Shown: piece after piece, positions 4,026 through 44,808 of the stretch
Layout: every line of letters starts with the position of its first letter
How positions within the stretch are numbered: the stretch's first letter is position 1
From: Nemertoderma westbladi
Taxonomy: Eukaryota > Animalia > Xenacoelomorpha
Assembly: GCA_032718475.1 (NCBI GenBank)
Contig: JAUCBJ010009058.1
Location: 62,001-126,000, forward strand
Length of the DNA: 64,000 nucleotides
Reading direction: 5' to 3'
Translations under genes and position numbers: made by a program
Notes under the pieces: generated by a model
What the model was told of the DNA's origin: nothing
Databases searched by the model: none
Seen by the model: only the letters and a program-made list of their open reading frames with translations

Positions 4026-4079
4026 CTGCAGAAAATGATATAAAGTGTCAACCGTATCAAAAATCATAATAAATTAATC

Positions 4080-6738
4080 TTACTTGTCTTTCTTTAGAAG
4101 CCCAGATTGATCCAAGCTATTGATGATACAGTTAACAACTTACTTGTGTTTCTACAGAGACCCAGATCCAAGCTATATCGATGATACAGTTAACAACTTA
4201 CTTGTGTTTCTACAGAGTCCCAGATCCAAGCTATCGATGATACAGTTAACAACTTACTTGTGTTTCTACAGAGGCCCAGATCCAAGCTATCGATGATACA
4301 GTTAACAACTTACTTGTGTTTCTACAGAGGCCCAGATCCAAGCTATCGATGATACAGTTAACAACTTACTTGTGTTTCTACAGAGTCCCAGATCCAAGCT
4401 ATCGATGATACAGTTAACAACTTACTTGTGTTTCTACAGAGACCCAGATCCAAGCTTTCGATGATACCGTTAACAACTTACTTGTGTTTCTACAGAGACC
4501 CAGACCCAAGCTATCGATGATACAGTTAACAACTTACTTGTGTTTCTACAGAGGCCCAGATCCAAGCTATCGATGATACAGTTAACAACTTACTTGTGTT
4601 TCTACAGAGGCCCAGATCCAAGCTATCGATGATACAGTTAACAACTTACTTGTGTTTACAGAGGCCCAGATCCAAGCTATCGATGATACAGTTAACAACT
4701 TACTTGTGTTTCTACAGAGACCCAGATCCAAGCTATCGATGATACAGTTAACAACTTACTTGTGTTTCTACAGAGGGCCAGACCCAAGCTATATCGATGA
4801 TACAGTTAACACCTTACTTGTGTTTCTACAGAGACCCAGATCCAAGCTATCGATGATACAGTTAACAACTTACTTGTGTTTCTACAGAGACCCAGATCCA
4901 AGCTATCGATGATACAGTTAACAACTTACTTGTGTTTCTACAGAGACCCAGATCCAAGCTATCGATGATACAGTTAACAACTTACTTGTGTTTACAGAGG
5001 CCCAGATCCAAGCTATCGATGATACAGTTAACAACTTACTTGTGTTTCTACAGAGACCCAGATCCAAGCTATCGATGATACAGTTAACAACTTACTTGTG
5101 TTTCTACAGAGACCCAGATCCAAGCTATTGATGATACAGTTAACAACTTACTTGTGTTTCTACAGAGACCCAGATCCAAGCTATCGATGATACAGTTAAC
5201 AACTTACTTGTGTTTCTACAGAGATCCAGATCCAAGTTATCGATGATACAGTTAACAACTTACTTGTGTTTCTACAGAGACCCAGATCCAAGCTATCGAT
5301 GATACAGTTAACAACTTACTTGTGTTTCTACAGAGACCCAGATCAAAGCTATCGATGATACAGTTAACAACTTACTTGTGTTTCTACAGAGACCCAGACC
5401 CAAGCTATCGATGATACAGTTTACAACTTACTTGTTTGTTTCTACAGAGACCCAGATCCAAGCTATCGATGATACAGTTAACAACTTACTTGTGTTTCTA
5501 CAGAGACCCAGATCCAAGCTATCGATGATACAGTTAACAACTTACTTGTGTTTCTACAGAGACCCAGATCCAAGCTATCGATGATACAGTTAACAACTTA
5601 CTTGTCTTTCTACAGAGACCCAAATCCAAGCTATCGATGATACAGTTAACAACTTACTTGTGTTTCTACAGAGACCCAGATCCAAGCTTTCGATGATACA
5701 GTTAACAACTTACTTGTGTTTCTACAGAGACCCAGATCCAAGCTATCGATGATACCGTTAACAACTTACTTGTGTTTCTACAGAGACCCAGATCCAAGCT
5801 TTCGATGATACAGTTAACAACTTACTTGTGTTTCTACAGAGGCCCAGATCCAAGCTATCGATGATACAGTTAACAACTTACTTGTGTTTCTACAGAGGCC
5901 CAGATCCAAGCTATCGATGATACAGTTAACAACTTACTTGTGTTTCTACAGAGACCCAGATCCAAGCTATCGATGATACAGTTAACAACTTACTTGTGTT
6001 TCTACAGAGACCCAGATCCAAGCTATCGATGATACAGTTAACAACTTACTTGTGTTTCTACAGAGACCCAGATCCAAGCTATCGATGATACAGTTAACAA
6101 CTTACTTGTGTTTCTACAGAGACCCAGATCCAAGCTATCGATGATACCGTTAACAACTTACTTGTGTTTCTACAGAGACCCAGATCCAAGCTATCGATGA
6201 TACAGTTACCAACTTACTTGTGTTTCTACAGAGACCCAGATCCAAGCTATCGATGATACCGTTAACAACTTACTTGTGTTTCTACAGAGACCCAGATCCA
6301 AGCTATCGATGATACAGTTAACAACTTACTTTCTACAGAGGCCCAGATCCAAGCTATCGATGATACAGTTAACAACTTACTTGTCTTTCTACAGAGACCC
6401 AAATCCAAGCTATCGATGATACAGTTAACAACTTACTTGTGTTTCTACAGAGACCCAGATCCAAGCTTTCGATGATACAGTTAACAACTTACTTGTGTTT
6501 CTACAGAGGCCCAGATCCAAGCTATCGATGATACAGTTAACAACTTACTTGTGTTTCTACAGAGGCCCAGATCCAAGCTATCGATGATACAGTTAACAAC
6601 TTACTTGTGTTTCTACAGAGACCCAGATCCAAGCTATCGATGATACAGTTAACAACTTACTTGTGTTTCTACAGAGACCCAGATCCAAGCTATCGATGAT
6701 ACAGTTAACAACTTACTTGTGTTTCTACAGAGACCCAG
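4080..6738. repeat. 56-bp satellite, left block (GAGACCCAGATCCAAGCTATCGATGATACAGTTAACAACTTACTTGTGTTTCTACA)n
   Basis: Clear 56-bp periodicity, interrupted at 6739 by the Polinton. The reverse complement equals the 3' end of the ABCG exon at 44703-44753 plus GTAAG. Confidence 0.97.
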
Positions 6739-7224
6739 AGTAGTAGAAGAAGAGGGCCCCCCCGCATACTCCTCCCTAGCCTGGGCTACGGGCTGCATCT
6801 CGGAGGGCTATTAAATACGTGCTAAATCGCGATGTTTAATGACCATCTGTCACCATCAATATTGATTCGTATCGATGCCTTCAACCAATCGTTGCCTATC
6901 GCCTACGCATAGCCTAACCTCACGATGCCTACCTTACTCGATAGCTGTTACCAACCATGAGTATTGATTCGTGTTGTTGCATCAACCAACCATCGCATAT
7001 TCATCTTCGCGTAACCTAACTTCACGATGCATGGCTAGCCCCCACTACGCTATTATATTATATATCGATTGCCAACTCACCACCGATAGCCACGCACGGC
7101 TACTCCTCGACGGCTGTCGCCAAACCAATCAATCCAACCAACCAAGCAGCCTACCAGTCCAACGCTATGATACGTGAAATTCCGCCACGTTCCAGCTACA
7201 CGTATACGAATATTTCCATAGTTA
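6739..7224 (+). repeat. Left terminal inverted repeat of the Polinton (486 bp)
   Basis: Reverse complement of 24474-24959 with about 8 mismatches counted by eye. Confidence 0.96.
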
Positions 7225-7647
7225 TTTCCTATCCAGGCAACCAACCAACCACCACCACTGTATACTGTATATGGTAACGACGTGGCCATCTACACGCATC
7301 ATGCATATATTATATTATATTGATTGCCAACTCCACGACCGCTGTCGCCAAATCAACAAACCAACCAGTATGATACATGAGATTCCGTCACGTTCCAGCT
7401 ACGCGTATACGAGCATTAGTGATTATTATTACGCAATAATTTTTTTGTTTATACAGTAGTTCCCTACCAGCTAATCAACCAATCAATAAACCGAATTTAG
7501 GCTATTTCTCAGTTTAAGACCTGTATTATTTTTGAAAATATCTTATATATATAATCTCTTGCTTTAATCACAATTAATCATTTGTAATGGTTTTAGTTTA
7601 AAAGTTTTTACTTTGTTTGTTTGATTTACAATAAAATAAATTAAATA

Positions 7648-8091
7648 ATGTCTTCTGATTCCGATATGGTTATGCCAATGGTAAGGCATTCATTTTTTGC
7701 AGAAGATGGTCAAGCCTATATTGTTATTGATTATACAATTTACCGTCAGGGAGATGATAAATATAAAATTGAGTTTTCTGAAAAAGCCAGGAAAGTTTTA
7801 AGCTCAATTGATATTGATGCTTCTGATAATAGTGTTCATCTCTTAGATTACAACCTGAAAGTTGAGCATGTGGGAAAATTAAGCAACATTTTACTATTAT
7901 CCATGATAGAGGGGTTTATTGTTATTACACAATACAACGAAGCTGGTGAAAAGTTTGAAATACGGCTAAATCGACATAGCCCCTACGAAATTATGTCTTT
8001 CTTTATTGTAATGATTTCAAAAGAATCCTTTATCGAAACTGAAGAATCAAAGGATAATGTTGAATATGTTGATAATATCATTGATTCTTGA
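7648..8091 (+). CDS. Polinton hypothetical acidic protein (147 aa)
   Basis: Open ATG-initiated frame in AT-rich flanks; first gene after the left TIR; no family recognised. Confidence 0.65.
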   Translation: MSSDSDMVMPMVRHSFFAEDGQAYIVIDYTIYRQGDDKYKIEFSEKARKVLSSIDIDASDNSVHLLDYNLKVEHVGKLSNILLLSMIEGFIVITQYNEAGEKFEIRLNRHSPYEIMSFFIVMISKESFIETEESKDNVEYVDNIIDS

Positions 8092-8258
8092 CTTTTCCCT
8101 CTATATTATAAATATTTTATGATTATATATAAAATTTTGATGTTTTAAATAATCGAAAATTGTAGCAGTATTTGTATATACAGTATAATAGTTTTGTTTG
8201 TTGTTGTTGTTGTTGTGTATTGCGGTAATTATTTTCAATTTACTTTAAAATTTGGAAA

Positions 8259-8711
8259 ATGGATATTTTAAATGAAAAATGTCCAGTTTGCTATTCTAAG
8301 TTATTGCAACAACATCGAGATTATTATAAATGTGAAAATAAACATGCAACTTGCGTACAATGTATTGTACAATATTCCGAAATGAATAATTATTGTTCTA
8401 AAATTTGTCCTATTTGTCGCGCACCCATATCTAAGTTTAATATAAAGTTGGCAAGTTATCAACCCTATTATTGGAAAGAGCTTCGCAATATAACTTATAT
8501 TTCTGCGGAAAGTAATGATCCGGGAGATTTATTTACAATATTGGAGAATATTTTTTATAGAAATGTAGTACGACGCTGTTGCTACTATATTCCTTATTTT
8601 TTTAGCAGCGAACATAAAAAAATTATTAGCGCGAAATTTTCGGGAAGTGATTTCCAAACCGCCGATGTTACCTATCATTATTTCGCGTATAAAGATGCTC
8701 ACCATGCTTGA
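8259..8711 (+). CDS. RING-finger protein (putative E3 ubiquitin ligase)
   Basis: C3HC4 spacing: CPVC...CENKHATCVQC...CPICR at the N terminus. Confidence 0.85.
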   Translation: MDILNEKCPVCYSKLLQQHRDYYKCENKHATCVQCIVQYSEMNNYCSKICPICRAPISKFNIKLASYQPYYWKELRNITYISAESNDPGDLFTILENIFYRNVVRRCCYYIPYFFSSEHKKIISAKFSGSDFQTADVTYHYFAYKDAHHA

Positions 8712-8927
8712 AATTACATCAGTCTATACTATAATTGGAAATAGCACCTTTTGTTGCAGCGAGCGTCACATACTGTAGCGGCGTCGTATGTTAATTAAAT
8801 ATACAGTACTCTAATATTGTAGTTGCATCAATTATTGTTATATACATAGTAATGGTGTTGGTTTATTGATATTGATATTGATATTATATTATATTGTATT
8901 GTTGATATATCTTAATAATAATAATAA

Positions 8928-9611
8928 ATGGCTGACTTTAATTCAGGTCCATATAATTTAAACTTTCAAATGGGAACGAGTATGATAATTTCTGGGCCAT
9001 CTGGTTCTGGAAAGTCAACCTTTGTAAGCAATTTAATTAAACACAAGAATGGTTGTTTCAACGAAGCCCCCTTGCGAGTATTGTATTGTTACGGGAGCAA
9101 TCCCCCGACTATTCCCGGTATTACTCACCTTTACAAAGGTTTGCCCAAAAATATAGATAGTTTAGTGAATAGTCGAGATTTATTAATTATAGATGATTTG
9201 TTAACAGAAACTGAGTCCAGTACAGCATTAACTGTATTGTTTACTAAGGTAGCTCATCATTCCAATATATTTATTTGTTTTATAATGCAAAACATGTTTT
9301 ACGGTGGGAAGCATAACCGCACAAGATCAATTAATAGCCATACTTTAGTATTAATGAAAAATCCGAGAGACAGTTTATCGGTTTTAAATTTCGCGAAGCA
9401 GATGTTACCAGGGCAGACCAAATTTTTAGTTGATTCCTATCAAGATGCGACAATTCAACCATTTTCACATTTCTTAATTGATTTACGACAGGAAACACCC
9501 GAACATTTAAGATTTAGATCTGATATATTTTGTAATCATAATTGTTACATTAAAAATTACACTGACTATAAACGTAGCAAAAATAATAATAATAATAATA
9601 ATGATAAATAA
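8928..9611 (+). CDS. A32/FtsK-like genome-packaging ATPase
   Basis: Walker A GPSGSGKST, Walker B LLIIDD, and the Polinton ATPase motifs HHSNI, QN and KNPRD. Confidence 0.95.
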   Translation: MADFNSGPYNLNFQMGTSMIISGPSGSGKSTFVSNLIKHKNGCFNEAPLRVLYCYGSNPPTIPGITHLYKGLPKNIDSLVNSRDLLIIDDLLTETESSTALTVLFTKVAHHSNIFICFIMQNMFYGGKHNRTRSINSHTLVLMKNPRDSLSVLNFAKQMLPGQTKFLVDSYQDATIQPFSHFLIDLRQETPEHLRFRSDIFCNHNCYIKNYTDYKRSKNNNNNNNDK

Positions 9612-9648
9612 TTAATATTTTGTAACAATTTTCAATAATGTTGCAACA

Positions 9649-10032
9649 ATGAATAGACTTGTGCAGAAATATCGTAACGAACTGGAATTTCTACGCAGCG
9701 CTACCCCTCAACAAAGAACTTATTTTATTAACCATACCGCGAGTAACGAATTAATACGGCTCATTGTAAATACTGCATTAAATGTTCTAAAAGGTAATGT
9801 ACAATTAACCCCTCATTCATTTAGAAATATTCGCCGCTATAAGAAGGTATTGAAATCACTCAACCGTAAAACAAAAAATATATCAAGTTACAGAAAAAAG
9901 TTAAGCAATCAATCTGGAGGTATACTACCGTTTCTAATACCCTTACTCGGCATTGGTGCGAAACTCGCCGCGAGTGCCGGAGCCGCCGCCGCTGGAGCAG
10001 CTATTGCTAAAAAAATTAACCGTGGACGGTAA
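9649..10032 (+). CDS. Basic virion core or membrane-active protein with a C-terminal hydrophobic/amphipathic peptide
   Basis: Basic helical N terminus, then QSGG followed by ILPFLIPLLGIGAKLAASAGAAAAG. Resembles the small conserved ORF found after the ATPase in Polintons; QSGG is a plausible adenain cleavage site. Confidence 0.75.
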   Translation: MNRLVQKYRNELEFLRSATPQQRTYFINHTASNELIRLIVNTALNVLKGNVQLTPHSFRNIRRYKKVLKSLNRKTKNISSYRKKLSNQSGGILPFLIPLLGIGAKLAASAGAAAAGAAIAKKINRGR

Positions 10033-10034
10033 TA

Positions 10035-10205
10035 ATGGTTAAAACAGGAGTAACATTTAGAAAATTATATTTAGTATCGAGTAAACTGTTAGCTACTGAT
10101 TTAAAACCTCAAGATATACCTAGAGTAAATACTACAAAAAGAAAACCCTTTAAAACATCAACTTCAAAGAAAATAATTAAAAAATTTCAGTTGTTCTTAC
10201 GGTGA
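10035..10205 (+). CDS. Small basic ORF (56 aa, MVKTGVTFRKLYLVSSKLL...), not in the ORF track
   Basis: ATG two bases after the previous stop (TAATAATG); fills the gap before the integrase; translated by hand. Confidence 0.5.
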   Translation: MVKTGVTFRKLYLVSSKLLATDLKPQDIPRVNTTKRKPFKTSTSKKIIKKFQLFLR

Positions 10206-10256
10206 TGCCCTTTATAAGAGATTTGAATATACATATTACTTGCGGTTGTCGAAAAG

Positions 10257-11345
10257 ATGCCTCGCAAGATGAAACCGATTTTAAGCCGAAGCTTAGACAA
10301 AAAACTGTTAAGAATTTATTTAGATCCTTCATCCCCTGTGGGATTTGCAAGTGTTGCAAAATTAGCAAAAGCTGCAAACATCAAATCAGCACAAGCCCAG
10401 AAATGGATGAGCGGGCAAAAGACATACACCCTTCACGCTCCACGTAGACACCATTATCCAACATCTAAAATATTTACGGGAGGCATAAAAGATATATATA
10501 TGATAGATCTGGTGGATATGCAGCAATATAAGTCGCAAAATAATAATTATAACTATATATTAACATGTATTGATGCCTTTAGCAGGCTTGCTTTTGGCTA
10601 TGATATGAAAACAAAAAAGGGTGTTGAAATTATTAGTATATTGCAAAAAATATTCCAGAAAGGAAAACCAAACAGAATCGCCACGGATCAAGGTTCTGAG
10701 TTTCTAAATAAATCTGTAAGGAAATATTTAGATACGTTAGGTATACAGTATTACGTAATGTACTCTGTGAATAAGGTGGCTATTGTCGAGAGATTCAATA
10801 GAACATTAAAAACAAAGATGTTCAAAATTTTTACACAACGAGGAAATAATGTTTGCATTAAAATTTTACCTAAGCTTATCTCGGCTTATAATAGGTCATA
10901 TCATAGGACAATAAAAATGACGCCTATTGAAGTTAATAAATTTAATGAAACTGAATTAATGAATAGATTATATGGGAAATATAGACAGATTAATCATAAG
11001 AAAATAAAATTTAAAGTTGGAGATACAGTACGATTATCTATCGCTCGTACTGCTTTTGCTAAAGGCTATCGAGAACAATGGACACGTGAATTATTTATTA
11101 TTCATCGTGTCAGGTTGGATAGAGTACCCGCTGTAATGTTCGATATTAAGGACAGCGCTGGAGCTATAATAAAGGGCTCATTTTATTCTCACGAACTCCA
11201 AAAGGTCCACCCGAATAGTAATATTTATCTAGCAATTGATAAAAATATTGGCAAACTTAAAGAACGTGTACGCAATGGGAAGAAAGAATATTTAGTCCGA
11301 TTCATCGGATCCAAGAAACAGTCGTGGGTACAGCATATTCAATAA
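10257..11345 (+). CDS. Retroviral-like (rve) DDE integrase with a C-terminal chromodomain-like remnant
   Basis: IDLVDM, TDQGSEF and VERFNRTLK catalytic triad; YNRSYHRTIKMTP; C-terminal KEYLVRFIG...SW. Confidence 0.96.
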   Translation: MPRKMKPILSRSLDKKLLRIYLDPSSPVGFASVAKLAKAANIKSAQAQKWMSGQKTYTLHAPRRHHYPTSKIFTGGIKDIYMIDLVDMQQYKSQNNNYNYILTCIDAFSRLAFGYDMKTKKGVEIISILQKIFQKGKPNRIATDQGSEFLNKSVRKYLDTLGIQYYVMYSVNKVAIVERFNRTLKTKMFKIFTQRGNNVCIKILPKLISAYNRSYHRTIKMTPIEVNKFNETELMNRLYGKYRQINHKKIKFKVGDTVRLSIARTAFAKGYREQWTRELFIIHRVRLDRVPAVMFDIKDSAGAIIKGSFYSHELQKVHPNSNIYLAIDKNIGKLKERVRNGKKEYLVRFIGSKKQSWVQHIQ

Positions 11346-11621
11346 GCTTAGGTTTATACTGTATATTAATTCATTTTGGTCGCATATGACCGTAATTAAT
11401 CAATATTAACTCGAATGATATTACTATATCTATAGTTCATCCGTTTTAAATAAAGCCAATAAAGCCAGTAAAATATTGATCCCGCGCATATACTGTAGAA
11501 GATGCGACAATGAACGACAATGAACGTGGTCACAGATGTCTATAATTTAACATTATACTGTACTGTACTGTATGTACAATGGAGTCAAGTAGAGAGAGAG
11601 CGAGCTTAAATAATAATAATA

Positions 11622-12494
11622 ATGGCCACAGATACATATATCACTCTACTTTCAGATAGCTCATTAAACACTTACCCCAATAATAATCCTAGCGAGTTTA
11701 CTGTTGATTTAGCCGAAGAATTATATATTGGTCCAAACGCTAAAATTGGGCTTGCCGAGCTTCAATATCAAGCAACATACAGTAATATTACGCTGCAAAC
11801 TCAAATCTCGCTGTCAATCGGGGTAGATGCAAAAGATGCCAAATTATATAGTTTATTTCCCGGTATGCATAACTCTATTTAAGTCATTATTGATGATATA
11901 AATAAACTGTTTAATTCTGAAGCGAAATATAGAGATTTCGAATTCATTTTTAATACAAATAATTCTAGAATTAAATTTAAATTTCCTAAAAAGTTGAAAA
12001 AAATACAATTAAGTCTACGTGGTGATTTAATACAAATTCTAGGCTTAAAACCGTTATTGGATCGGAATCATCCGGATATTCCGAATTGGGATATATACAG
12101 TACCACTACAGTAGATGAATTAAGCAATATAGAACAGCCAATATTAATTTTAAATTATAGCGGGCCAAAAATTTCGGAAATTGGCATTTTAGATTTTCCA
12201 GCTCCCACGAATATAACACGTAATAAAGACACTATCTTTATATACACAGATATTATTAAGAGCTCATTTGTTGGCGACCCTTTAGCACCGCTCTTAAGAA
12301 CCTGCCCTTTAACGCAATTAAATCGAAAATATATTAATCACGAATACGAGAGCATTTGCTATTACCCGTTGTTGAATAAAAAACTAAAAACAATCTTAAT
12401 TACTTTACGTGACGGACAAGGCGAATTAATTAACTTCAGCGGAGGTCGCACTGTTATAACACTTAAGTTAATACGGGGTGGCAGTGATGGATGA
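11622..12494 (+). pseudogene. Minor capsid protein (penton) paralogue 1 with an in-frame TAA at 11880-11882
   Basis: ORFs 11622..11882 and 11994..12494 share a frame. Motifs YITLLSDSS..YP.N..S.F, IFIYTDII..S.VGD..APLLR and C-terminal TVITLKL. Confidence 0.85.
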
Positions 12495-13331
12495 ATTCTA
12501 CGTAAGACTACCAAGTAATTCCTGTCCAATTGATTTTCCCCGCAATAGTGCTAGTAATTATCAGATAAATTTCCATGGCGCCTTACCTATAAACCCAAAC
12601 GAAAACTGGGTGGTAGGTATAAAAAGTATATTTTACTTAGCTACGTTGCCGTCCATGTATAACAATGTAGAGAATGTTTTTATTAAAAAAAGGAAAAAAA
12701 AATTTTGAGGATACACTTCCATCCGGTTTGTTCTACAGTATCAATGACATTATAGATTATTTTAACACGGGGGCGTTGAAAGATAAATTACAAATAGTTG
12801 AAAATACTCAGCAAAATAGGTTGCAATTTATTTTAGGGAAAACTGTGCGCGAGTTATTTATAGGTCAACAATTAGCCTATTATTTTGGAATTACTGAAAA
12901 TAATCTCGGCGCGAATTTAAATCCAAATTTTAAAATTATTTTGAAGACGAAAAATAATATAAAGGGTTATTTAATAAAGGTTATCGGAAATGGAGAAAAA
13001 GCTTACCAGATGGTATTTTTATGCCCTCAACCACCCAATTCTATTCCAGAACCTAAGTCGAACATGTACGTGACTACTAATATAATTGAAAATCAATATA
13101 TTAACGATTTTGGTTTAGCTTTACTTCGTCGTGTTGCGATACCTGATGATGTGAAATATGGTAGCGTAATAAATAAAGAATTTGTCAAGGATACAATTCA
13201 TTATATCCCTGTAAAAAAAATCATATAAGATAACATACATTCATATTGAAATAACAGACAAAGAAGGAAAAGATTTGAATTTTGAATACGGGACAACATC
13301 TATTACATTACACTTTAAACGTATAAATTAA
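12487..13331 (+). pseudogene. Minor capsid protein (penton) paralogue 2 with two frameshifts in A-runs (about 12690 and 13215)
   Basis: FYVRLPSNS...FP.NSASNY at the start, MYVTTNIIENQ...LLRRV centrally. Correcting the second A-run gives IHIEITDKEGKDLNFEYGTTSITLHFKRIN* ending at 13331. Confidence 0.82.
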
Positions 13332-13332
13332 A

Positions 13333-13896
13333 ATGGATTCTGATTTATTTCAAAGATACAGTAAACCTCAATATGGTGGTTCAGACTCTAATCTTGCTGT
13401 TTTTAAAGGTGGTAGAAGTACCAGAGGTTCGACGCAAGTTCCTGTTTTTCGAGGTGGTTCATATATTTACCCTTACGGTCAACAAATTGACACATTTGGT
13501 CCAAACTTAAAACAACGTCGTTTTCAGCGTTATCGTAGAGGTATGCGGGCAAATCAACACGGAGAAGGTATATTTACAGACGCTTTATCGACATTGAAAA
13601 AATTTGGTAAGCCATTAGCTAAAAAAGTTTTACAGAAAGCTTTACCATTTACCACAAAATTTATGAGACAACACGTAATACCAAAAGGTAAGCGGGTCTT
13701 ACATCAGCAGGCTAATACGGTTATTAATAAAGCATTAAATAAAATGAAACCGTCAACAAGGTCAGTTGTAGAAAAAGTTTATAGAGATTTAAAGCGACCC
13801 GCTAGACCAATGTCTATGAACATACATCATGGACGTAGTAATAAAAATAAAAAAATAAAGGGCAAACTGAAACACTGTGAAAAAAGTATTTTTTAA
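13333..13896 (+). CDS. Basic core/cement protein precursor with Gly-Gly cleavage-type motifs
   Basis: QYGG, VFKGG, VFRGG and QHGEG-IF motifs followed by an amphipathic K/R-rich region; lies immediately upstream of the major capsid gene. Confidence 0.75.
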   Translation: MDSDLFQRYSKPQYGGSDSNLAVFKGGRSTRGSTQVPVFRGGSYIYPYGQQIDTFGPNLKQRRFQRYRRGMRANQHGEGIFTDALSTLKKFGKPLAKKVLQKALPFTTKFMRQHVIPKGKRVLHQQANTVINKALNKMKPSTRSVVEKVYRDLKRPARPMSMNIHHGRSNKNKKIKGKLKHCEKSIF

Positions 13897-13898
13897 TA

Positions 13899-15158
13899 AT
13901 GTCAATTATTAAGGAATTAGATTTATTTTCTACACAGCCAATACAGACTGAATTTAAAGCAAAGCATTATGAAACAATTTACCCCGTATCTAATCTCAGA
14001 AGTGAATCTAGGGAGGTCACGTTCCTTGTACCGAGATCCAATGAATTCTATACGAAACTGCAAGACGCGTTATTAATTACAAAATGTACTGTACGCTGGG
14101 ATAGACGACTTGAAAACTCCCATATTTATATGCTGAATTACCCCGCTGAAACTATGTGGAGTGATATTAAAATAGACCTTAATGAGAAGCAGGTTGAAAA
14201 TAGCAATAACCATTATTTCTACAAGTCGTACTTATCCAATTTATTATTTACAACTTACGAGGATAAAAATGGGCTACTGGGTGCGGGTGGCTTTCATCAA
14301 CCTTTATCTGAACACGGAAATGAAATTGATCCCGGCGCGCATCCTATTGCCGATGCCTTTAGTAAACAAATGCAATTTGTAAGTGGATTGACAATTGATT
14401 TTGATACTGAAACTAAAATAATACAACCCGGGTATGATTTAAGAATGCATTTTAGAAAAGTATCAAATTCGTTTATTTTTAAAATCACTCCAAATGCAAA
14501 CGCTGTGACAAATCTTCGGTTAGAATTAGATGAAATAAAGATTCTAATCCCTAGAATGGAGGTTAATCCAGTAATAGAAAGCAGTCACCTAAAAGGTTTA
14601 GAGAGTTACGATATTGAATATCAATTCCAAAAAAAGGAGGTGACAACATTTACTATTCCCGCACAAACCACAAATTACACCCAAACAAACATATTTGATG
14701 GTAAAAAACCCAAATTAGTTATTATTGGCTTCATAACAAATAACGCTTACTCGGGAGAATTAATTAGCAATCCCTTGAAATTTGAACATTTTAACCTTAG
14801 ACGCGCGGAACTGATTGTAGACAGTCTTCCAGTAGGGGGTGTAATATACGAGCCTAATTTTACAGATGGAACATATATTTTTGAGTATACTCAATTAATG
14901 AAGAACATTAATACATATATTAACGGTTATGGAGGTAATAATATAGACCATGAAACCTACTTAGGTAATTGTCCCATCTTATCCTGGGACCTAACCGCCG
15001 ACGGCTATGTTAGAGATCCGCAACCGTCGATATATACTAACGGCCAATTAAAATTAAGATTTGCCGAACCGTTGGTTGAAACCATAAATGTAATCATTTT
15101 TAATATTTATGATCAATCATTAAGTTTAAATAGCAGGAAAGAAATACATATCGATTAA
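13899..15158 (+). CDS. Major capsid protein (double jelly-roll, hexon-like), intact
   Basis: ELDLFSTQPIQT N terminus and IF.GKKPK.VIIGF..N.AYSG...NP.KF.HFNL motifs typical of Polinton capsids; 419 aa. Confidence 0.92.
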   Translation: MSIIKELDLFSTQPIQTEFKAKHYETIYPVSNLRSESREVTFLVPRSNEFYTKLQDALLITKCTVRWDRRLENSHIYMLNYPAETMWSDIKIDLNEKQVENSNNHYFYKSYLSNLLFTTYEDKNGLLGAGGFHQPLSEHGNEIDPGAHPIADAFSKQMQFVSGLTIDFDTETKIIQPGYDLRMHFRKVSNSFIFKITPNANAVTNLRLELDEIKILIPRMEVNPVIESSHLKGLESYDIEYQFQKKEVTTFTIPAQTTNYTQTNIFDGKKPKLVIIGFITNNAYSGELISNPLKFEHFNLRRAELIVDSLPVGGVIYEPNFTDGTYIFEYTQLMKNINTYINGYGGNNIDHETYLGNCPILSWDLTADGYVRDPQPSIYTNGQLKLRFAEPLVETINVIIFNIYDQSLSLNSRKEIHID

Positions 15159-15160
15159 GT

Positions 15161-15613
15161 ATGTTATCTACAGAGGACCTTGATATGTTTCCAGTGGGTG
15201 GTCACTATTTGGGCGCGTTTCCAGCTAATAAATTACCTAAATTAGATAATAATAAGCGGCAGGATTATGGCTTGATAGTAAATACCGATAAAGAGCATCT
15301 GCCTGGGATTCATTGGATCGCGATATATATACGAGATAATGAGGCCGAAGTATTTGACTCGTTTGGACCAAAATATCCAAACAGATGCATCGAAAAATGG
15401 CTTGAGAAATATTCCGCAAGGTGGCGTACTACTCGCAAACAATTTCAAGACCCAAGGAGGACCACATGCGGTCTGTACTGTCTGTATTATTTGGTAAATC
15501 GTATTCACACAATCTATCCAATGAGAGCGTTTACAAATAATGTGGAAATAAATGAAATAATATTATATAAATGGCTTGTTAATTATTATAAAATAAACCA
15601 ACATGCGTTGTAA
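15161..15613 (+). CDS. Adenain-like cysteine protease (virion maturation)
   Basis: NTD...PGIHWIA (His), FDSFG (Asp), Q.....TCGLYCLYYL (Gln/Cys). Confidence 0.94.
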   Translation: MLSTEDLDMFPVGGHYLGAFPANKLPKLDNNKRQDYGLIVNTDKEHLPGIHWIAIYIRDNEAEVFDSFGPKYPNRCIEKWLEKYSARWRTTRKQFQDPRRTTCGLYCLYYLVNRIHTIYPMRAFTNNVEINEIILYKWLVNYYKINQHAL

Positions 15614-15648
15614 TTAATCATTTAGCTTGCTTTTGTTTATCAGATAAA

Positions 15649-16251: not shown

Positions 16252-16373
16252 GTTTACTCTAAGCATGTAATGTGATGGGATAATATAATTGTTTTAATGT
16301 CAATAAAAATAATAAAAACATTAAAATCTATTTTTTATATCTCAGTTTGACTAAAGGTGTAGGGCTTAAGTTT

Positions 16374-16393
16374 ACACACACACACACACACAC

Positions 16394-16472
<79 letters not shown>
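16374..16472. repeat. (CA)n microsatellite inside the Polinton
   Basis: About 49 CA units with one interruption. Confidence 0.97.
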
Positions 16473-16474
<2 letters not shown>

Positions 16475-22551: not shown

Positions 22552-22737
22552 GTTGAAGTTTGTTTAGATAAATAATAATAATAATAATAAAATATCTCCA
22601 AAGATTAAAATAAAATGAAATGATATGATATTGACTACATCTAAACATTTATATGCTAGCGAGGGAAATAATTTTAAACCAATCACCAATCGCTTATGAC
22701 TATTGGAAACCGCAAAGAGTTTAACTTATGATTAGGC

Positions 22738-23800: not shown

Positions 23801-23864
23801 AATAATAATAATAAATACGAAAAATATTACAAGTGATAAATTTTAAACCGTATCGCTGTAATAA

Positions 23865-24149: not shown

Positions 24150-24473
24150 TATATTACCATGAAGATTACAAGTGATGAATTTTATTAAAAACATTCACTT
24201 ATATATATATAAATTTGCGATGTGGCATAGTCAACGAAGAAGAGATGGTACGTGTCATAATCATCAACGAATAAGAAAAGAGATGGGGAGCAACGTGGAT
24301 GAATAGCTGGCTGGTTGATTGCGTGGATAGGAAATACGTGAAAGAATATGAATCATAGGGTTGTGTGCGATAATAATCAATAATTATTATAATAAAAACG
24401 TGCAGTATAATGTTAGTGGTGGTAGCCTTTCAATATGGCACAGATGCTGTGGGATTGGTTAGGTTAGGTTGAG

Positions 24474-33900: not shown

Positions 33901-36900
33901 ATAGAGACCCAGATCCAAGCTATCGATGATACCGTTAACAACTTACTTGCGTTTCTACAGAGACCCAGATCCAAGATATCGATGATACAGTTAACAACTT
34001 ACTTGTGTTTCTACAGAGACCCAGATCCAAGCTATCGATGATACAGTTAACAACTTACTTTTTTGTTTCTACAGAGACCCAGATCCAAGCTATCGATGAT
34101 ACAGTTAACAACTTACTTGTTTGTTTCTACAGAGACCCAGATCCAAGATATCGATGATACAGTTAACAACTTACTTGTGTTTCTACAGAGACCCAGATCC
34201 AAGCTATCGATGATACAGTTAACAACTTACTTGTGTTTCTACAGAGACCCAGATCCAAGCTATCGATGATACAGTTAACAACTTACTTGTGTTTCTACAG
34301 AGACCCAGATCCAAGCTATCGATGATACAGTTAACAACTTACTTTTTTGTTTCTACAGAGACCCAGATCCAAGCTATCGATGATACAGTTAACAACTTAC
34401 TTGAATTTCTACAGAGGCCCAGACCCAAGCTATCGATGGTACAGTTAACAACTTACTTGTGTTTCTACAGAGACCCAGACCCAAGCTATCGATGATACAG
34501 TTAACAACTTACTTGTGTTTCTACAGAGACCCAGATCCAAGCTATCGATGATACAGTTAACAACTTACTTGAATTTCTACAGAGGCCCAGACCCAAGCTA
34601 TCGATGGTACAGTTAACAACTTACTTGTGTTTCTACAGAGACCCAGACCCAAGCTATCGATGATACAGTTTACAACTTACTTGTGTTTCTACAGAGACCC
34701 AGACCCAAGCTATATCGATGATACAGTTAACAACTTACTTGTGTTTCTACAGAGGCCCAGACCCAAGCTATCGATGGTACAGTTAACAACTTACTTGTGT
34801 TTCTACAGAGACCCAGATCCAAGATATTGATGATACAGTTAACAACTTACTTGTGTTTCTACAGAGACCCAGATCCAAGCTATCGATGATACAGTTAACA
34901 ACTTACTTGAATTTCTACAGAGGCCCAGACCCAAGCTATCGATGGTACAGTTAACAACTTACTTGTGTTTCTACAGAGACCCAAATCCAAGCTATCGATG
35001 ATACAGTTAACAACTTACTTGTGTTTCTACAGAGACCCAAATCCAAGCTATCGATGATACAGTTAACAACTTACTTGTGTTTCTACAGAGACCCAGATCC
35101 AAGATATCGATGATACAGTTAACAACTTACTTGTGTTTCTACAGAGACCCAAATCCAAGCTATCGATGATACAGTTAACAACTTACTTGTGTTTCTACAG
35201 AGACCCAGATCAAAGCTATCGATGATACAGTTAACAACTTACTTGTGTTTCTACAGAGACCCAGATCCAAGCTTTCGATGATACAGTTAACAACTTACTT
35301 GTGTTTCTAAAGAGTCCCAGACCCAAGCTATCGATGATACAGTTAACAACTTACTTGTGTTTCTACAGAGGCCCAGATCCAAGCTATCGATGATACCGTT
35401 AATAACTTACTTGTGTTTCTACAGAGACCCAGATCCAAGCTATCGATGATACAGTTTACAACTTACTTGTGTTTCTACAGAGACCCAGACCCAAGCTATA
35501 TCGATGATACAGTTAACAACTTACTTGTGTTTCTACAGAGGCCCAGATCCAAGCTATCGATGATACAGTTAACAACTTACTTGTGTTTCTACAGAGACCC
35601 AGATCCAAGCTATCGATGATACAGTTAACAACTTACTTGTGTTTCTACAGAGACCCAGATCCAAGCTATCGATGATACAGTTAACAACTTACTTGTGTTT
35701 CTACAGAGGCCCAGATCCAAGCTATCGATGATACCGTTAATAACTTACTTGTGTTTCTACAGAGACCCAGATCCAAGCTATCGATGATACAGTTTACAAC
35801 TTACTTGTGTTTCTACAGAGACCCAGACCCAAGCTATATCGATGATACAGTTAACAACTTACTTGTGTTTCTACAGAGGCCCAGATCCAAGCTATCGATG
35901 ATACAGTTAACAACTTACTTGTGTTTCTACAGAGACCCAGATCCAAGCTATCGATGATACAGTTAACAACTTACTTGTGTTTCTACAGAGACCCAGATCC
36001 AAGCTATCGATGATACAGTTAACAACTTACTTGTGTTTCTACAGAGACCCAGATCCAAGCTATCGATGATACAGTTAACAACTTACTTGTGTTTCTACAG
36101 AGACCCAGATCCAAGCTATCGATGATACAGTTAACAACTTACTTGTGTTTCTACAGAGACCCAGATCCAAGCTATCGATGATACAGTTAACAACTTACTT
36201 GTGTTTCTACAGAGGCCCAGATCCAAGCTATCGATGATACAGTTAACAACTTACTTGTGTTTCTACAGAGACCCAGATCCAAGCTATCGATGATACAGTT
36301 AACAACTTACTTGTGTTTCTACAGAGACCCAGATCCAAGCTATCGATGACACAGTTAACAACTTACTTGTGTTTCTACAGAGACCCAGATCCAAGCTATC
36401 GATGATACAGTTAACAACTTACTTGTGTTTCTACAGAGACCCAGATCCAAGCTATCGATGATACAGTTAACAACTTACTTGTGTTTCTACAGAGGCCCAG
36501 ATCCAAGCTATCGATGATACAGTTAACAACTTACTTGTGTTTCTACAGAGACCCAGATCCAAGCTATCGATGATACAGTTAACAACTTACTTGTGTTTCT
36601 ACAGAGGCCCAGATCCAAGCTATCGATGATACAGTTAACAACTTACTTGTGTTTCTACAGAGACCCAGATCCAAGCTATCGATGATACAGTTAACAACTT
36701 ACTTGTGTTTCTACAGAGGCCCAGATCCAAGCTATCGATGATACAGTTAACAACTTACTTGTGTTTCTACAGAGGCCCAGATCCAAGCTATCGATGGTAC
36801 AGTTAACAACTTACTTGTGTTTCTACAGAGACCCAGATCCAAGCTATCGATGGTACAGTTAACAACTTACTTGTGTTTCTACAGAGACCCAGATCCAAGC

Positions 36901-39900
36901 TATCGATGATACAGTTAACAACTTACTTGTGTTTCTACAGAGACCCAGATCCAAGCTATCGATGATACAGTTAACAACTTACTTGTGTTTCTACAGAGGC
37001 CCAGATCCAAGCTATTGATGATACAGTTAACATCTTACTTGTGTTTCTACAGAGACCCAGATCCAAGCTATCGATGATACAGTTAACAACTTACTTGTGT
37101 TTCTACAGAGACCCAGATCCAAGCTATCGATGATACAGTTAACAACTTACTTGTTTGTTTCTACAGAGACCCAGATCCAAGATATCGATGATACAGTTAA
37201 CAACTTACTTGTGTTTCTACAGAGACCCAGATCCAAGCTATCGATGATACAGTTAACAACTTACTTGTGTTTCTACAGAGACCCAGATCCAAGCTATCGA
37301 TGATACAGTTAACAACTTACTTGTGTTTCTACAGAGACCCAGATCCAAGCTATCGATGATACAGTTAACAACTTACTTTTTTGTTTCTACAGAGACCCAG
37401 ATCCAAGCTATCGATGATACAGTTAACAACTTACTTGTGTTTCTACAGAGACCCAGATCCAAGCTATCGATGATACAGTTAACAACTTACTTGTGTTTCT
37501 ACAGAGACCCAGATCCAAGCTATCGATGATACAGTTAACAACTTACTTGTGTTTCTACAGAGACCCAGATCCAAGCTATCGATGATACAGTTAACAACTT
37601 ACTTTTTTGTTTCTACAGAGACCCAGATCCAAGCTATCGATGATACAGTTAACAACTTACTTGTGTTTCTACAGAGACCCAGATCCAAGCTATCGATGAT
37701 ACAGTTAACAACTTACTTGTGTTTCTACAGAGACCCAGATCCAAGCTATCGATGATACAGTTAACAACTTACTTGTGTTTCTACAGAGACCCAGATCCAA
37801 GCTATCGATGATACAGTTAACAACTTACTTGTTTGTTTCTACAGAGACCCAGATCCAAGATATCGATGATACAGTTAACAACTTACTTTTGTTTCTACAG
37901 AGACCCAGATCCAAGCTATCGATGATACAGTTAACAACTTACTTGTGTTTCTACAGAGACCCAGATCCAAGCTATCGATGATACAGTTAACAACTTACTT
38001 GTGTTTCTACAGAGACCCAGATCAAAGCTATCGATGATACAGTTAACAACTTACTTGTGTTTCTACAGAGACCCAGATCCAAGCTTTCGATGATACAGTT
38101 AACAACTTACTTGTGTTTCTACAGAGACCCAGATCCAAGCTATCGATGATACAGTTAACAACTTACTTGTGTTTCTACAGAGGCCCAGATCCAAGCTATC
38201 GATGGTACAGTTAACAACTTACTTGTGTTTCTACAGAGACCCAAATCCAAGCTATCGATGATACCGTTAACAACTTACTTGTGTTTCTACAGAGACCCAG
38301 ATCCAAGCTATCGATGATACAGTTAACAACTTACTTGAATTTCTACAGAGGCCCAGACCCAAGCTATCGATGGTACAGTTAACAACTTACTTGTGTTTCT
38401 ACAGAGACCCAAATCCAAGCTATCGATGATACAGTTAACAACTTACTTGTGTTTCTACAGAGACCCAGATCCAAGCTTTCGATGATACAGTTAACAACTT
38501 ACTTGTGTTTCTACAGAGACCCAGATCCAAGCTTTCGATGATACAGTTAACAACTTACTTGTGTTTCTACAGAGACCCAGATCCAAGATATCGATGGTAC
38601 AGTTAACAACTTACTTGTGTTTCTACAGAGACCCAAATCCAAGCTATCGATGATACAGTTAACAACTTACTTGTGTTTCTACAGAGACCCAGATCAAAGC
38701 TATCGATGATACAGTTAACAACTTACTTGTGTTTCTACAGAGACCCAGATCCAAGCTTTCGATGATACAGTTAACAACTTACTTGTGTTTCTACAGAGAC
38801 CCAGATCCAAGCTATCGATGATACAGTTAACAACTTACTTGAATTTCTACAGAGGCCCAGACCCAAGCTATCGATGGTACAGTTAACAACTTACTTGTGT
38901 TTCTACAGAGACCCAAATCCAAGCTATCGATGATACAGTTAACAACTTACTTGTGTTTCTACAGAGACCCAAATCCAAGCTATCGATGATACAGTTAACA
39001 ACTTACTTGTGTTTCTACAGAGACCCAGATCCAAGATATCGATGAAACAGTTAACAACTTACTTGTGTTTCTACAGAGACCCAGATCCAAGCTATCGATG
39101 ATACAGTTAACAACTTACTTGTGTTTCTACAGAGATCCAGATCCAAGCTTTCGATGATACAGTTAACAACTTACTTGTGTTTCTACAGAGACCCAGATCC
39201 AAGCTATCGATGGTACAGTTAACAACTTACTTGTGTTTCTACAGAGACCCAAATCCAAGCTATCGATGATACAGTTAACAACTTACTTGTGTTTCTACAG
39301 AGACCCAGATCAAAGCTATCGATGATACAGTTAACAACTTACTTGTGTTTCTACAGAGACCCAGATCCAAGCTTTCGATGATACAGTTAACAACTTACTT
39401 GTGTTTCTACAGAGACCCAGATCCAAGCTATCGATGATACAGTTAACAACTTACTTGAATTTCTACAGAGGCCCAGACCCAAGCTATCGATGGTACAGTT
39501 AACAACTTACTTGTGTTTCTACAGAGACCCAAATCCAAGCTATCGATGATACAGTTAACAACTTACTTGTGTTTCTACAGAGACCCAGATCAAAGCTATC
39601 GATGATACAGTTAACAACTTACTTGTGTTTCTACAGAGACCCAGATCCAAGCTTTCGATGATACAGTTAACAACTTACTTGTGTTTCTACAGAGACCCAG
39701 ATCCAAGCTATCGATGATACAGTTAACAACTTACTTGAATTTCTACAGAGGCCCAGACCCAAGCTATCGATGGTACAGTTAACAACTTACTTGTGTTTCT
39801 ACAGAGGCCCAGATCCAAGCTATCGATGATACAGTTAACAACTTACTTGTGTTTCTACAGAGACCCAGATCCAAGCTATCGATGATACAGTTAACAACTT

Positions 39901-42900
39901 ACTTGAATTTCTACAGAGGCCCAGACCCAAGCTATCGATGGTACAGTTAACAACTTAATTGTGTTTCTACAGAGACCCAAATCCAAGCTATCGATGATAC
40001 AGTTAACAACTTACTTGTGTTTCTACAGAGACCCAAATCCAAGCTATCGATGATACAGTTAACAACTTACTTGTGTTTCTACAGAGACCCAGATCCAAGA
40101 TATCGATGATACAGTTAACAACTTACTTGTGTTTCTACAGAGACCCAGATCCAAGCTATCGATGGTACAGTTAACAACTTACTTGTGTTTCTACAGAGAC
40201 CCAGATCCAAGCTTTCGATGATACAGTTAACAACTTACTTGTGTTTCTACAGAGACCCAGATCCAAGCTATCGATGGTACAGTTAACAACTTACTTGTGT
40301 TTCTACAGAGACCCAAATCCAAGCTATCGATGATACAGTTAACAACTTACTTGTGTTTCTACAGAGACCCAGATCAAAGCTATCGATGATACAGTTAACA
40401 ACTTACTTGTGTTTCTACAGAGACCCAGATCCAAGCTTTCGATGATACAGTTAACAACTTACTTGTGTTTCTACAGAGACCCAGATCCAAGCTATCGATG
40501 ATACAGTTAACAACTTACTTGAATTTCTACAGAGGCCCAGACCCAAGCTATCGATGGTACAGTTAACAACTTACTTGTGTTTCTACAGAGACCCAAATCC
40601 AAGCTATCGATGATACAGTTAACAACTTACTTGTGTTTCTACAGAGACCCAGATCAAAGCTATCGATGATACAGTTAACAACTTACTTGTGTTTCTACAG
40701 AGACCCAGATCCAAGCTTTCGATGATACAGTTAACAACTTACTTGTGTTTCTACAGAGACCCAGATCCAAGCTATCGATGATACAGTTAACAACTTACTT
40801 GAATTTCTACAGAGGCCCAGACCCAAGCTATCGATGGTACAGTTAACAACTTACTTGTGTTTCTACAGAGGCCCAGATCCAAGCTATCGATGATACAGTT
40901 AACAACTTACTTGTGTTTCTACAGAGACCCAGATCCAAGCTATCGATGATACAGTTAACAACTTACTTGTGTTTCTACAGAGACCCAGATCCAAGCTATC
41001 GATGATACAGTACAGAGGCCAAGATCCAAGCTATCGATGATACAGTTAACAACTTACTTGTGTTTCTATAGAGACCCAGATCCAAGCTATCGATGATACC
41101 GTTAACAACTTACTTGCGTTTCTACAGAGACCCAGATCCAAGATATCGATGATACAGTTAACAACTTACTTGTGTTTCTACAGAGACCCAGATCCAAGCT
41201 ATCGATGATACAGTTAACAACTTACTTTTTTGTTTCTACAGAGACCCAGATCCAAGCTATCGATGATACAGTTAACAACTTACTTGTTTGTTTCTACAGA
41301 GACCCAGATCCAAGATATCGATGATACAGTTAACAACTTACTTGTGTTTCTACAGAGACCCAGATCCAAGCTATCGATGATACAGTTAACAACTTACTTG
41401 TGTTTCTACAGAGACCCAGATCCAAGCTATCGATGATACAGTTAACAACTTACTTGTGTTTCTACAGAGACCCAGATCCAAGCTATCGATGATACAGTTA
41501 ACAACTTACTTTTTTGTTTCTACAGAGACCCAGATCCAAGCTATCGATGATACAGTTAACAACTTACTTGAATTTCTACAGAGGCCCAGACCCAAGCTAT
41601 CGATGGTACAGTTAACAACTTACTTGTGTTTCTACAGAGACCCAGACCCAAGCTATCGATGATACAGTTAACAACTTACTTGTGTTTCTACAGAGACCCA
41701 GATCCAAGCTATCGATGATACAGTTAACAACTTACTTGAATTTCTACAGAGGCCCAGACCCAAGCTATCGATGGTACAGTTAACAACTTACTTGTGTTTC
41801 TACAGAGACCCAGACCCAAGCTATCGATGATACAGTTAACAACTTACTTGTGTTTCTACAGAGACCCAGATCCAAGCTATCGATGATACAGTTAACAACT
41901 TACTTGAATTTCTACAGAGGCCCAGACCCAAGCTATCGATGGTACAGTTAACAACTTACTTGTGTTTCTACAGAGACCCAGATCCAAGATATTGATGATA
42001 CAGTTAACAACTTACTTGTGTTTCTACAGAGACCCAGATCCAAGCTATCGATGATACAGTTAACAACTTACTTGAATTTCTACAGAGGCCCAGACCCAAG
42101 CTATCGATGGTACAGTTAACAACTTACTTGTGTTTCTACAGAGACCCAAATCCAAGCTATCGATGATACAGTTAACAACTTACTTGTGTTTCTACAGAGA
42201 CCCAAATCCAAGCTATCGATGATACAGTTAACAACTTACTTGTGTTTCTACAGAGACCCAGATCCAAGATATCGATGATACAGTTAACAACTTACTTGTG
42301 TTTCTACAGAGACCCAAATCCAAGCTATCGATGATACAGTTAACAACTTACTTGTGTTTCTACAGAGACCCAGATCAAAGCTATCGATGATACAGTTAAC
42401 AACTTACTTGTGTTTCTACAGAGACCCAGATCCAAGCTTTCGATGATACAGTTAACAACTTACTTGTGTTTCTACAGAGACCCAGATCCAAGCTATCGAT
42501 GATACAGTTAACAACTTACTTGAATTTCTACAGAGGCCCAGACCCAAGCTATCGATGGTACAGTTAACAACTTACTTGTGTTTCTACAGAGACCCAGATC
42601 CAAGCTATCGATGATACAGTTAACAACTTACTTGAATTTCTACAGAGGCCCAGATCCAAGCTTTCGATGATACAGTTAACAACTTACTTGTGTTTCTACA
42701 GAGACCCAGATCCAAGCTATCGATGGTACAGTTAACAACTTACTTGTGTTTCTACAGAGACCCAAATCCAAGCTATCGATGATACAGTTAACAACTTACT
42801 TGTGTTTCTACAGAGACCCAGATCAAAGCTATCGATGATACAGTTAACAACTTACTTGTGTTTCTACAGAGACCCAGATCCAAGCTTTCGATGATACAGT

Positions 42901-44753
42901 TAACAACTTACTTGTGTTTCTACAGAGACCCAGATCCAAGCTATCGATGATACAGTTAACAACTTACTTGAATTTCTACAGAGGCCCAGACCCAAGCTAT
43001 CGATGGTACAGTTAACAACTTACTTGAATTTCTACAGAGGCCCAGACCCAAGCTATCGATGGTACAGTTAACAACTTACTTGTGTTTCTACAGAGACCCA
43101 GACCCAAGCTATCGATGATACAGTTAACAACTTACTTGTGTTTCTACAGAGACCCAGATCCAAGCTATCGATGATACAGTTAACAACTTACTTGTGTTTC
43201 TACAGAGACCCAGATCCNNNNNNNNNNNNNNNNNNNNNNNNNNNNNNNNNNNNNNNNNNNNNNNNNNNNNNNNNNNNNNNNNNNNNNNNNNNNNNNNNNN
43301 NNNNNNNNNNNNNNNNNACCCATATCCAAGCTATCGATGATACCGTTAACAACTTACTTGTGTTTCTACAGAGACCCAGATCCAAGCTATCGATGATACA
43401 GTTAACAACTTACTTGTGTTTCTACAGAGACCCATATCCAAGCTATCGATGATACCGTTAACAACTTACTTGTGTTTCTACAGAGACCCAGATCGAAGCT
43501 ATCGATGATACAGTTAACAACTTACTTGTGTTTCTACAGAGACCCAGACCCAAGCTATCGATGATACAGTTAACATCTTACTTGTGTTTCTACAGAGACC
43601 CAGATCCAAGCTATCGATGATACAGTTAACAACTTACTTGTGTTTCTACAGAGACCCAGACCCAAGCTATCGATGATACAGTACAGAGACCCAGATCCAA
43701 GCTATCGATGATACAGTTAACAACTTACTTGTGTTTCTACAGAGGCCCAGATCCAAGCTATCGATAATACAGTACAGAGACCCAGATCCAAGCTATCGAT
43801 GGTACAGTTAACAACTTACTTGTGTTTCTACAGAGGCCCAGACCCAAGATATCGATAATACAGTACAGAGACCCAGATCCAAGCTATCGATGATACAGTT
43901 AACAACTTACTTGTGTTTCTACAGAGACCCAGATCCAAACTATCGATAATACAGTTAACAACTTACTTGTGTTTCTACAGAGACCCAGATCCAAGCTATC
44001 GATGATACAGTTAACAACTTACTTGTGTTTCTACAGAGGCCCAGATCCAAGCTATCGATGATACAGTTAACAACTTACTTGTGTTTCTACAGAGACCCAG
44101 ATCCAAGCTATCGATGATACAGTTAACTACTTACTTGTGTTTCTACAGAGACCCAGATCCAAGCTATCGATGATACAGTTAACAACTTACTTGTGTTTGT
44201 TTCTACATAGACCCAGATCAAAGCTATCGATGATACAGTTAACAACTTACTTGTGTTTCTACAGAGACCCAGATCCAAGCTATCGATGATACAGTTAACA
44301 ACTTACTTGTGTTTCTACAGAGGCCCAGATCCAAGCTATCGATGATACAGTTAACAACTTACTTGTGTTTGTTTCTACATAGACCCAGATCAAAGCTATC
44401 GATGATACAGTCAACAACTTACTTGTGTTTCTACAGAGACCCAGATCCAAGCTATCGATGATACAGTTAACAACTTACTTGTGTTTCTACAGAGACCCAG
44501 ATCCAAGCTATCGATGATACAGTTAACAACTTACTTGTGTTTCTACAGAGACCCAGATCCAAGCTATCGATGATACAGTTAACAACTTACTTGTGTTTCT
44601 ACAGAGACCCAGATCCAAGCTATTGATGATACAGTTAACAACTTACTTGTGTTTCTACAGAGACCCAAATCCAAGCTATCGATGATACAGTTAACAACTT
44701 ACTTGTGTTTCTACAGAGACCCAGATCCAAGCTATCGATGATACAGTTAACAA
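24960..44753. repeat. 56-bp satellite, right block, with higher-order duplications and a scaffold gap
   Basis: Same unit as 4080-6738, about 350 copies; its last unit merges into the ABCG exon. Confidence 0.97.
43218..43317. other. Assembly gap (100 N)
   Basis: Run of exactly 100 N, the usual placeholder for a gap of unknown size. Confidence 0.99.
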
Positions 44754-44808
44754 TCGCTTCTTTCTCAGATACTTTGAGAGAATCTGATAGGCGTAAATGA
44801 GCCGTATA
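44703..44808 (-). CDS. Host ABCG transporter exon (YTAHLRLSDSLKVSEKEAIVNCIIDSLDLGLCRNT); its 3' half is the first satellite unit
   Basis: Acceptor ttcctttcttag| and donor |gtaagt; 106 nt, phase 0/1. Joins ...DTLM to IIGD...LSGGE as expected for an ABCG NBD. Confidence 0.92.

Follow-up and report, generated by a model that had tools for sequence, protein, structure and literature searches.

A splice-donor satellite of about 400 units in an intron of an ABCG gene of Nemertoderma westbladi

We examined 64,000 nucleotides of the genome of the xenacoelomorph Nemertoderma westbladi (assembly GCA_032718475.1, contig JAUCBJ010009058.1, positions 62,001 to 126,000 of the forward strand; this whole stretch is called the window below), which carry part of an ABCG gene on the minus strand. 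One of its introns contains a 56-bp satellite whose unit is the end of the preceding exon plus the 5' splice site (donor) that follows it. In the explanation that we consider likely, this array fills most of the intron, a Maverick/Polinton transposon lies inside it, the gene still splices from the first donor, and the array is a neutral passenger. The case is striking, yet mechanistically expected, and its functional side, including all that concerns RNA, is inferred from DNA. Arrays of this kind are known; what sets this one apart is its extreme size, with roughly 15-fold more copies than the largest array that we met in the literature, together with a 7.2-kb higher-order duplication.

The ABCG gene and its 56-bp satellite

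Tandem arrays were detected with Tandem Repeats Finder, domains with Pfam and exon homology with tblastn. Five ABCG exons, designated A to E, were placed in the window (Table 1). When joined, they give 636 nt without a stop, with GT/AG dinucleotides at 10 of 10 splice sites and with the Walker A, Q-loop, signature, Walker B, D-loop and H-loop motifs in order; the membrane domain lies beyond the window. Three of the four exons scanned matched ABC families in Pfam, exon B being the exception. Over its whole length, the joined product of 211 residues can be aligned with named animal ABCG proteins at 55-64%, the best matches having 0-2 gap positions; it reaches 60% with both a Lingula protein (1 gap position) and a Ptychodera protein (0 gaps). 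The best named relatives of exon A (61-71%) come from a hemichordate, a barnacle, sharks, corals, a brachiopod and a scallop. Full-length relatives retrieved by exon A match the five exons in consecutive order and, therefore, the predicted junction from 44703 to 4025 should encode an intact ABCG protein.

Table 1. Location of the ABCG exons, the donor-spanning arrays and the Maverick/Polinton in the window
Feature	Position	Strand	Remarks
ABCG exon A	54605-54777	-	173 nt; completes Walker A, Q-loop; Pfam ABC_tran E 1.1e-05, tblastn, AG/GT ends
ABCG exon B	44703-44808	-	106 nt; its final 51 nt form array unit 1; no Pfam match of its own
ABCG exon C	3925-4025	-	101 nt; signature motif, Walker B; Pfam ABC_tran E 9.5e-06
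ABCG exon D	3665-3790	-	126 nt; D-loop, H-loop; homology alignment
ABCG exon E	3156-3285	-	130 nt; Pfam ABC2_membrane_7 E 2e-4, below cut-off; homology alignment
56-bp array, exon-proximal block	43318-44753	-	27 pieces, 23 GTAAG including the authentic donor at 44702
Assembly gap	43218-43317		100 N, inside the 56-bp array
56-bp array, main block	24960-43217	-	327 pieces, 321 GTAAG; holds the higher-order duplications
56-bp array, distal block	4079-6738	-	47 pieces; ends in the diverged last copy 4079-4138
Ordinary-intron remnant	4026-4083	-	58 nt GT...AG, donor included
Maverick/Polinton	6739-24959		18,221 nt; terminal inverted repeats, AGT/ACT ends, target duplication, integrase, protease
Second array	61300-64000	-	unit of 28/29 bp, made up of 16 nt from the end of the Walker A exon (phase 1) and 12 intron nt

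The composition of the satellite was as originally predicted: at 44698-44753, on the minus strand, the unit consists of the last 51 nt of exon B followed by GTAAG. The proposed number of about 400 copies also proved sound. A fuzzy anchor search gave 394 matches, all within 4000-45000, and found the unit nowhere else in the 64-kb window, while full decomposition of the array gave 401 pieces, a count that includes some halves of deletion units. The motif GTAAG occurs 392 times in the three array blocks, authentic donor included, and 371 of these sites keep the exact -3 to +6 context (a 9-mer) of the authentic donor. Tandem Repeats Finder placed the arrays at 4109-6739 and about 25,000-44,753. 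The array consensus is identical to the exon B unit at 56 of 56 sites. The per-unit statistics refer to the 348 pieces of exactly 56 nt, 53 pieces of other lengths being excluded; 135 of the 348 do not differ from the exon unit, and the mean is 1.05 changes. At the far end, as had been noted, stands a diverged last copy (6 substitutions and a 4-nt insertion relative to the unit) with its donor at 4083, after which there are 58 nt to the next acceptor, counted from GT to AG with the donor included. The array thus shows what characterizes a boundary-spanning minisatellite: units arranged head to tail, a first unit lying on the boundary, a boundary older than the repeat, and a reiterated donor.

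The age of that boundary was judged from 33 homologous loci identified in metagenome contigs, 18 of which show the end of exon B. A phase-1 intron occupies the same place in 13 of the 18, with GT one base past the Thr codon exactly as in the window, and the remaining 5 read through. None of the 18 has a repeat of the exon tail downstream; together with the 13 introns, this indicates that the exon and its intron predate the array. The residues of the unit agree with the family profile, bearing in mind that the L, C and T columns served to select the profile rows. When 100,000 shuffles of the unit were scored for a donor placed behind a match to the conserved exon end, 20 scored as well as the 56-nt unit, which is also contiguous with the exon. 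The exact exon-donor junction pattern of the unit had 0 matches in the metagenome contigs. The proposed origin of the array from an exon end plus its donor, in an old exon and an old intron, is therefore supported by the conserved residues, the intron position and the absence of the repeat in homologues. Seven coral-like loci (L001, L005, L006, L007, L009, L010 and L031) have an extra intron within the stretch that corresponds to the single exon B.

How the array came to have the exon sequence as its consensus while its edge copy stands 11% away may be explained in either of several ways: re-seeding from the exon, a long-standing pair of copies from which the one on the exon side multiplied in a late burst, or escape of the edge from homogenisation. 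Diverged edge units that escape homogenisation have been reported for the lancelet globin gene BflGb6 (PMC3087553, PMC3902484). We rejected polar growth from the exon, as mean changes per unit along the array (0.67, 1.53, 1.0, 1.04, 0.6, 0.85 and 0.72) show no gradient. A founding unit of 57 nt, in frame and formed through a 4-nt microhomology, was likewise unsupported (0 such junctions).

Growth of the intron and the Maverick/Polinton

It had been proposed that the satellite inflated the intron to at least 40 kb, but this was not confirmed. The 40,677 nt between exons B and C comprise 22,298 nt of array (55%), 18,221 nt of a Maverick/Polinton (45%) sitting in one unit, 100 N and 58 nt of ordinary intron, with lengths as assembled across the 100-N gap. 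The 58-nt remnant is likely the intron as it was before the expansion, its length standing in for the original one. The locus would then illustrate how a tolerated splice-site duplication, followed by satellite expansion and finally by a Maverick insertion, can enlarge an intron of 58 nt about 700-fold.

By its ends and protein matches, the 18.2-kb element is a degraded Maverick/Polinton. Its terminal inverted repeats of 486 nt differ at 8 positions, its ends read (AGT)2...(ACT)2, and it is flanked by a 6-bp target duplication derived from one 56-bp unit. An integrase (rve, E 9.6e-12) and an adenovirus-type protease (Peptidase_C5, E 3.2e-05) were matched above the Pfam cut-off, and DNA_pol_B_2 (E 1.1e-04) and the ATPase-like Pox_A32 (E 0.005) below it. 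The ends, the target duplication, the integrase, the protease and an arrangement in two converging gene modules agree with known Mavericks (PMC8097293), from which the present copy differs in being degraded, its polymerase region being spread over several open reading frames (ORFs). A 425-aa ORF adjoining the protease (13881-15158) is without a Pfam match, and its location would fit a capsid gene. Two further ORFs lie in the element, one RING-like (8229-8711) and the other with a TBP-like match in Pfam (18459-19061, E 3.4e-06), as does an (AC)n tract (16374-16473).

Excising the Maverick with one copy of the target restores the register of the units, and runs of variants up to 331 nt are common to both flanks; the transposon therefore appears to have landed in a pre-existing array. 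The main block of the array holds higher-order duplications of 7,167 nt (4 differences in 6,141 nt) and 3,146 nt (2 in 1,701 nt). Divergence between the terminal repeats of the Maverick is about 25-fold that between the copies of the 7.2-kb duplication, and array growth would therefore have continued after the insertion, if the duplication is real. This last condition concerns the assembly: the 7.2-kb duplication might be a false copy, or the gap wrongly sized, so that size and layout would be in part artefactual. The gap does lie inside the array, variant types switch across it, and so few differences between higher-order copies are what a false copy might show. However, the same unit and consecutive exons are found on both sides of the gap, and shared variant runs and a clean target duplication flank the Maverick. 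We regard an artefact as quite improbable; it would alter the count and not the nature of the array, and the gap more likely conceals further units.

Donor choice and activity of the gene

According to the original prediction, an intact protein results from the first donor alone, and read-through changes the frame and meets TAA within three units. We followed donors 2 to 6, and for these five later donors the first part was borne out, donor 1 alone leading to an open frame. The second part applies to donors 3 to 6, which run into TAA in the third unit, but not to donor 2, which shifts the frame and meets its stop inside exon C. Distinct variants in the array copies comprise 8 silent and 24 replacement changes, compared with 31 and 113 possible; the copies are thus free of coding constraint and probably drift neutrally. 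As for the gene itself, death at the time when the last copy diverged (about 11%) would predict around 5 lesions, either stops or damaged splice sites, and none was seen (P = 0.007). The gene thus appears to have outlived the first duplication. It is likely that the gene is active and that its first donor is in use.

Boundary-spanning minisatellites with predominant first-donor use are known from human and lancelet genes (PMC1557585, PMC3087553), and the novelty of kind implied in the original prediction is therefore unsupported. In intron 7 of human F7, a 37-bp variable number tandem repeat supplies identical downstream donors that are functional, and tests on RNA showed the most upstream one to be chosen; in the LMNB2 and PDGF minisatellites the first donor only is in use (PMC1557585). 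As in the window, the first unit in F7, 6-16, CBS, LMNB2 and PDGF spans the exon-intron boundary and identical donors follow (PMC1557585). The human arrays, however, number 5-26 units as against about 400, and the F7 unit has 4 exon bases as against 51 of 56; the available portion of the report mentions neither higher-order repeats nor transposons, both of which are seen here (PMC1557585). Donor choice in F7 rests on RNA, whereas here it is predicted from DNA sequence. With about 400 donors spread across 22 kb or more, where the known arrangement has 5-26, the locus tests the first-donor rule under extreme natural conditions.

Invertebrate counterparts are the lancelet 'mirages' in Adh3, globin BflGb6/9, TnC and PGBD5, with which splicing is reported to be normal (PMC3087553, PMC3902484). 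They share with the window copies of exon-intron boundaries in an invertebrate, concerted evolution, diverged edge units and the presence of two in one gene (PGBD5), but they copy both 5' and 3' boundaries, with 3-6 units in BflGb6, whereas only copies of donors were seen here (PMC3087553, PMC3902484). The acceptor-spanning array of BflGb6 refutes the idea, which we had considered, that only donor-spanning arrays are survivable (PMC3087553, PMC3902484). A boundary-spanning array of hundreds of units, or one with a Maverick inside, was not found in the literature searched, most subscription papers being outside its coverage.

In the course of events that we favour, a small duplication would first have placed a copy of the end of the exon, with its donor, in an ancestral intron that was still short. 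The first donor would have stayed in use through exon definition, so that the duplicated donor was tolerated, and unequal exchange would then have expanded units identical to the exon. A Maverick would have inserted into one unit, and kilobase-sized duplications would have enlarged the array thereafter. Rare slips to later donors would produce premature stops and be cleared by nonsense-mediated decay (NMD), acting as a safety net and not as a switch. The Walker A exon of this gene may have gone through the same course in an independent event.

Several observations weigh against this account. The probability of finding no damage is 0.42 if the gene died at the main expansion and 0.68 if it died at the Maverick insertion, and the 11% age estimate rests on a single 56-nt copy at the array edge. 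The Maverick contributes 40 sense-strand AATAAA hexamers, and the ends of the intron are joined across a scaffold gap. The 6-16 and CBS genes also use two further donors (PMC1557585), which makes some leakage plausible here. Lastly, donor positions in the array vary less than others (0.19% compared with 2.1% of units; 6 of 56 test windows were as low); selection on the extra donors was nevertheless rejected, the trend towards fewer changes not being significant (p = 0.14).

The first of these points bears on whether the allele has recently been silenced, the expansion or the Maverick having blocked transcription or splicing while the exons have not yet decayed. Death at 1-2% divergence is compatible with the decay test, the AATAAA hexamers could contribute, and no near-identical protein was present among 21 matches or among the best 150 representatives. 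That protein may be absent merely because the species is outside the protein collection, however, and two arrays and introns of at least 9.2, 9.8 and 40.7 kb accumulated while exons and splice sites stayed intact. Megabase-sized, satellite-rich introns are, moreover, transcribed in Drosophila (PMC11207136). The gigantic Y-linked genes of Drosophila share with this ABCG gene introns swollen by repetitive DNA, but they reach the megabase scale, and an origin of their repeats from the gene's own splice sites is not stated in the available portions of the reports (PMC11207136, PMC6508613). Silencing seems unlikely to us.

The array might instead have a regulatory role, a tunable share of transcripts being routed to NMD when splicing slips to the second or third donor. 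All five later donors examined lead to a premature stop, the exact context is kept at most donors, and the nonsignificant shortage of variants at donor sites points the same way. In known cases, however, no extra donor beyond the nearest one or two is used (PMC1557585), so that 400 donors would add nothing; the donor is deleted in five array periods of 35 nt, and donors decay in the second array described below. We consider such a role very unlikely and retain the neutral passenger.

Recursive splicing is defined by AG-GT ratchet sites, at which an acceptor is directly followed by a donor inside an intron. Stepwise splicing had been raised in the original prediction and finds little support: AGGT was counted 0 and 0 times in the two right-hand array blocks and once in the left block, and one YAG-GTRAG occurs in the Maverick. 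Stepwise removal might also proceed through the AG that lies 8 nt before each donor, acting as an internal acceptor. With 10 pyrimidines among the 17 upstream positions this AG is on a par with the poorest of the five real acceptors, which have 10-15, but each step would presumably leave an 8-nt piece that shifts the frame. Removal of the intron in this manner appears extremely unlikely.

A second donor-spanning array and other repeats

A second array runs past the end of the window upstream of exon A, with about 90-95 units in view and its last donor at 61316. On the gene strand its unit reads V-M-G-P-S-G and then GTAAGT, and exon A completes that Walker A motif in phase 1; an intron lies at the same base in 8 of the 16 homologous loci that show the motif. 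In comparisons with seven homologous exon ends, 15-20 of 22 nt of the unit agree, and 0 of 100,000 shuffles did as well. We infer that the array is contiguous with the Walker A exon beyond 64000. Behind 90 matched exon parts the donor is GTAAGT in 34 and the weakened GTAAAG in 33, suggesting that extra donors decay freely. The array also contains a higher-order duplication of 628 nt, whose copies differ at 1 site in 441 nt.

Under the favoured explanation, this array arose independently of the 56-bp array in the same gene. Given the first, the rough chance of a second donor array among five other large arrays is 6-12%, which is suggestive but not proof of a bias. The 48-, 20-, 36- and 39-bp arrays of the window were also considered as splice-site copies and rejected; a single unit was sampled per array, and the sampled units lacked a donor motif on both strands as well as any informative match to a protein. 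A broader proposition is that the 5' splice sites of this genome act as nurseries of satellites with the coding exon as lasting master copy, that purifying selection on the protein pins the consensus of an array of more than 20 kb through ongoing exchange of sequence with the exon, and that introns balloon from their own donors and then collect large transposons. The proposition would fit the presence of two arrays in one gene, the agreement of consensus and exon, and the 11% divergence of the last copy, but a simple late burst from a copy near the exon fits equally, and we think the proposition rather unlikely. If donors were over-represented among array origins genome-wide, this would point to a novel origin for satellites and for gigantic introns.

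Tandem arrays total 32.7 kb of the 64-kb window and are thus common in this gene. The 48-bp array (1-3080; 64 copies, 98% matches) begins 76 nt past the donor of exon E and extends past the window start, and arrays of 20 bp (48094-48595) and 39 bp (58106-59378) are intronic. Inside the 36-bp array (49594-53717), with 2.6 units on its left, is a fragment of a long interspersed nuclear element (LINE; RVT_1, E 2.9e-10), which parallels the Maverick as a transposon within an intronic array; another copy of the LINE fragment, with 95-97% identity, is present near 45521-46410. At 56034-57542 there are two direct copies and one inverted copy of a sequence of about 280-330 nt, which may be a small non-autonomous element. 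Finally, a stop-free frame of 227 aa on the minus strand (60419-61102) contains a perfect 51-bp triplication and is without a Pfam match; judged by motif only, it resembles the start of a LINE reverse transcriptase.

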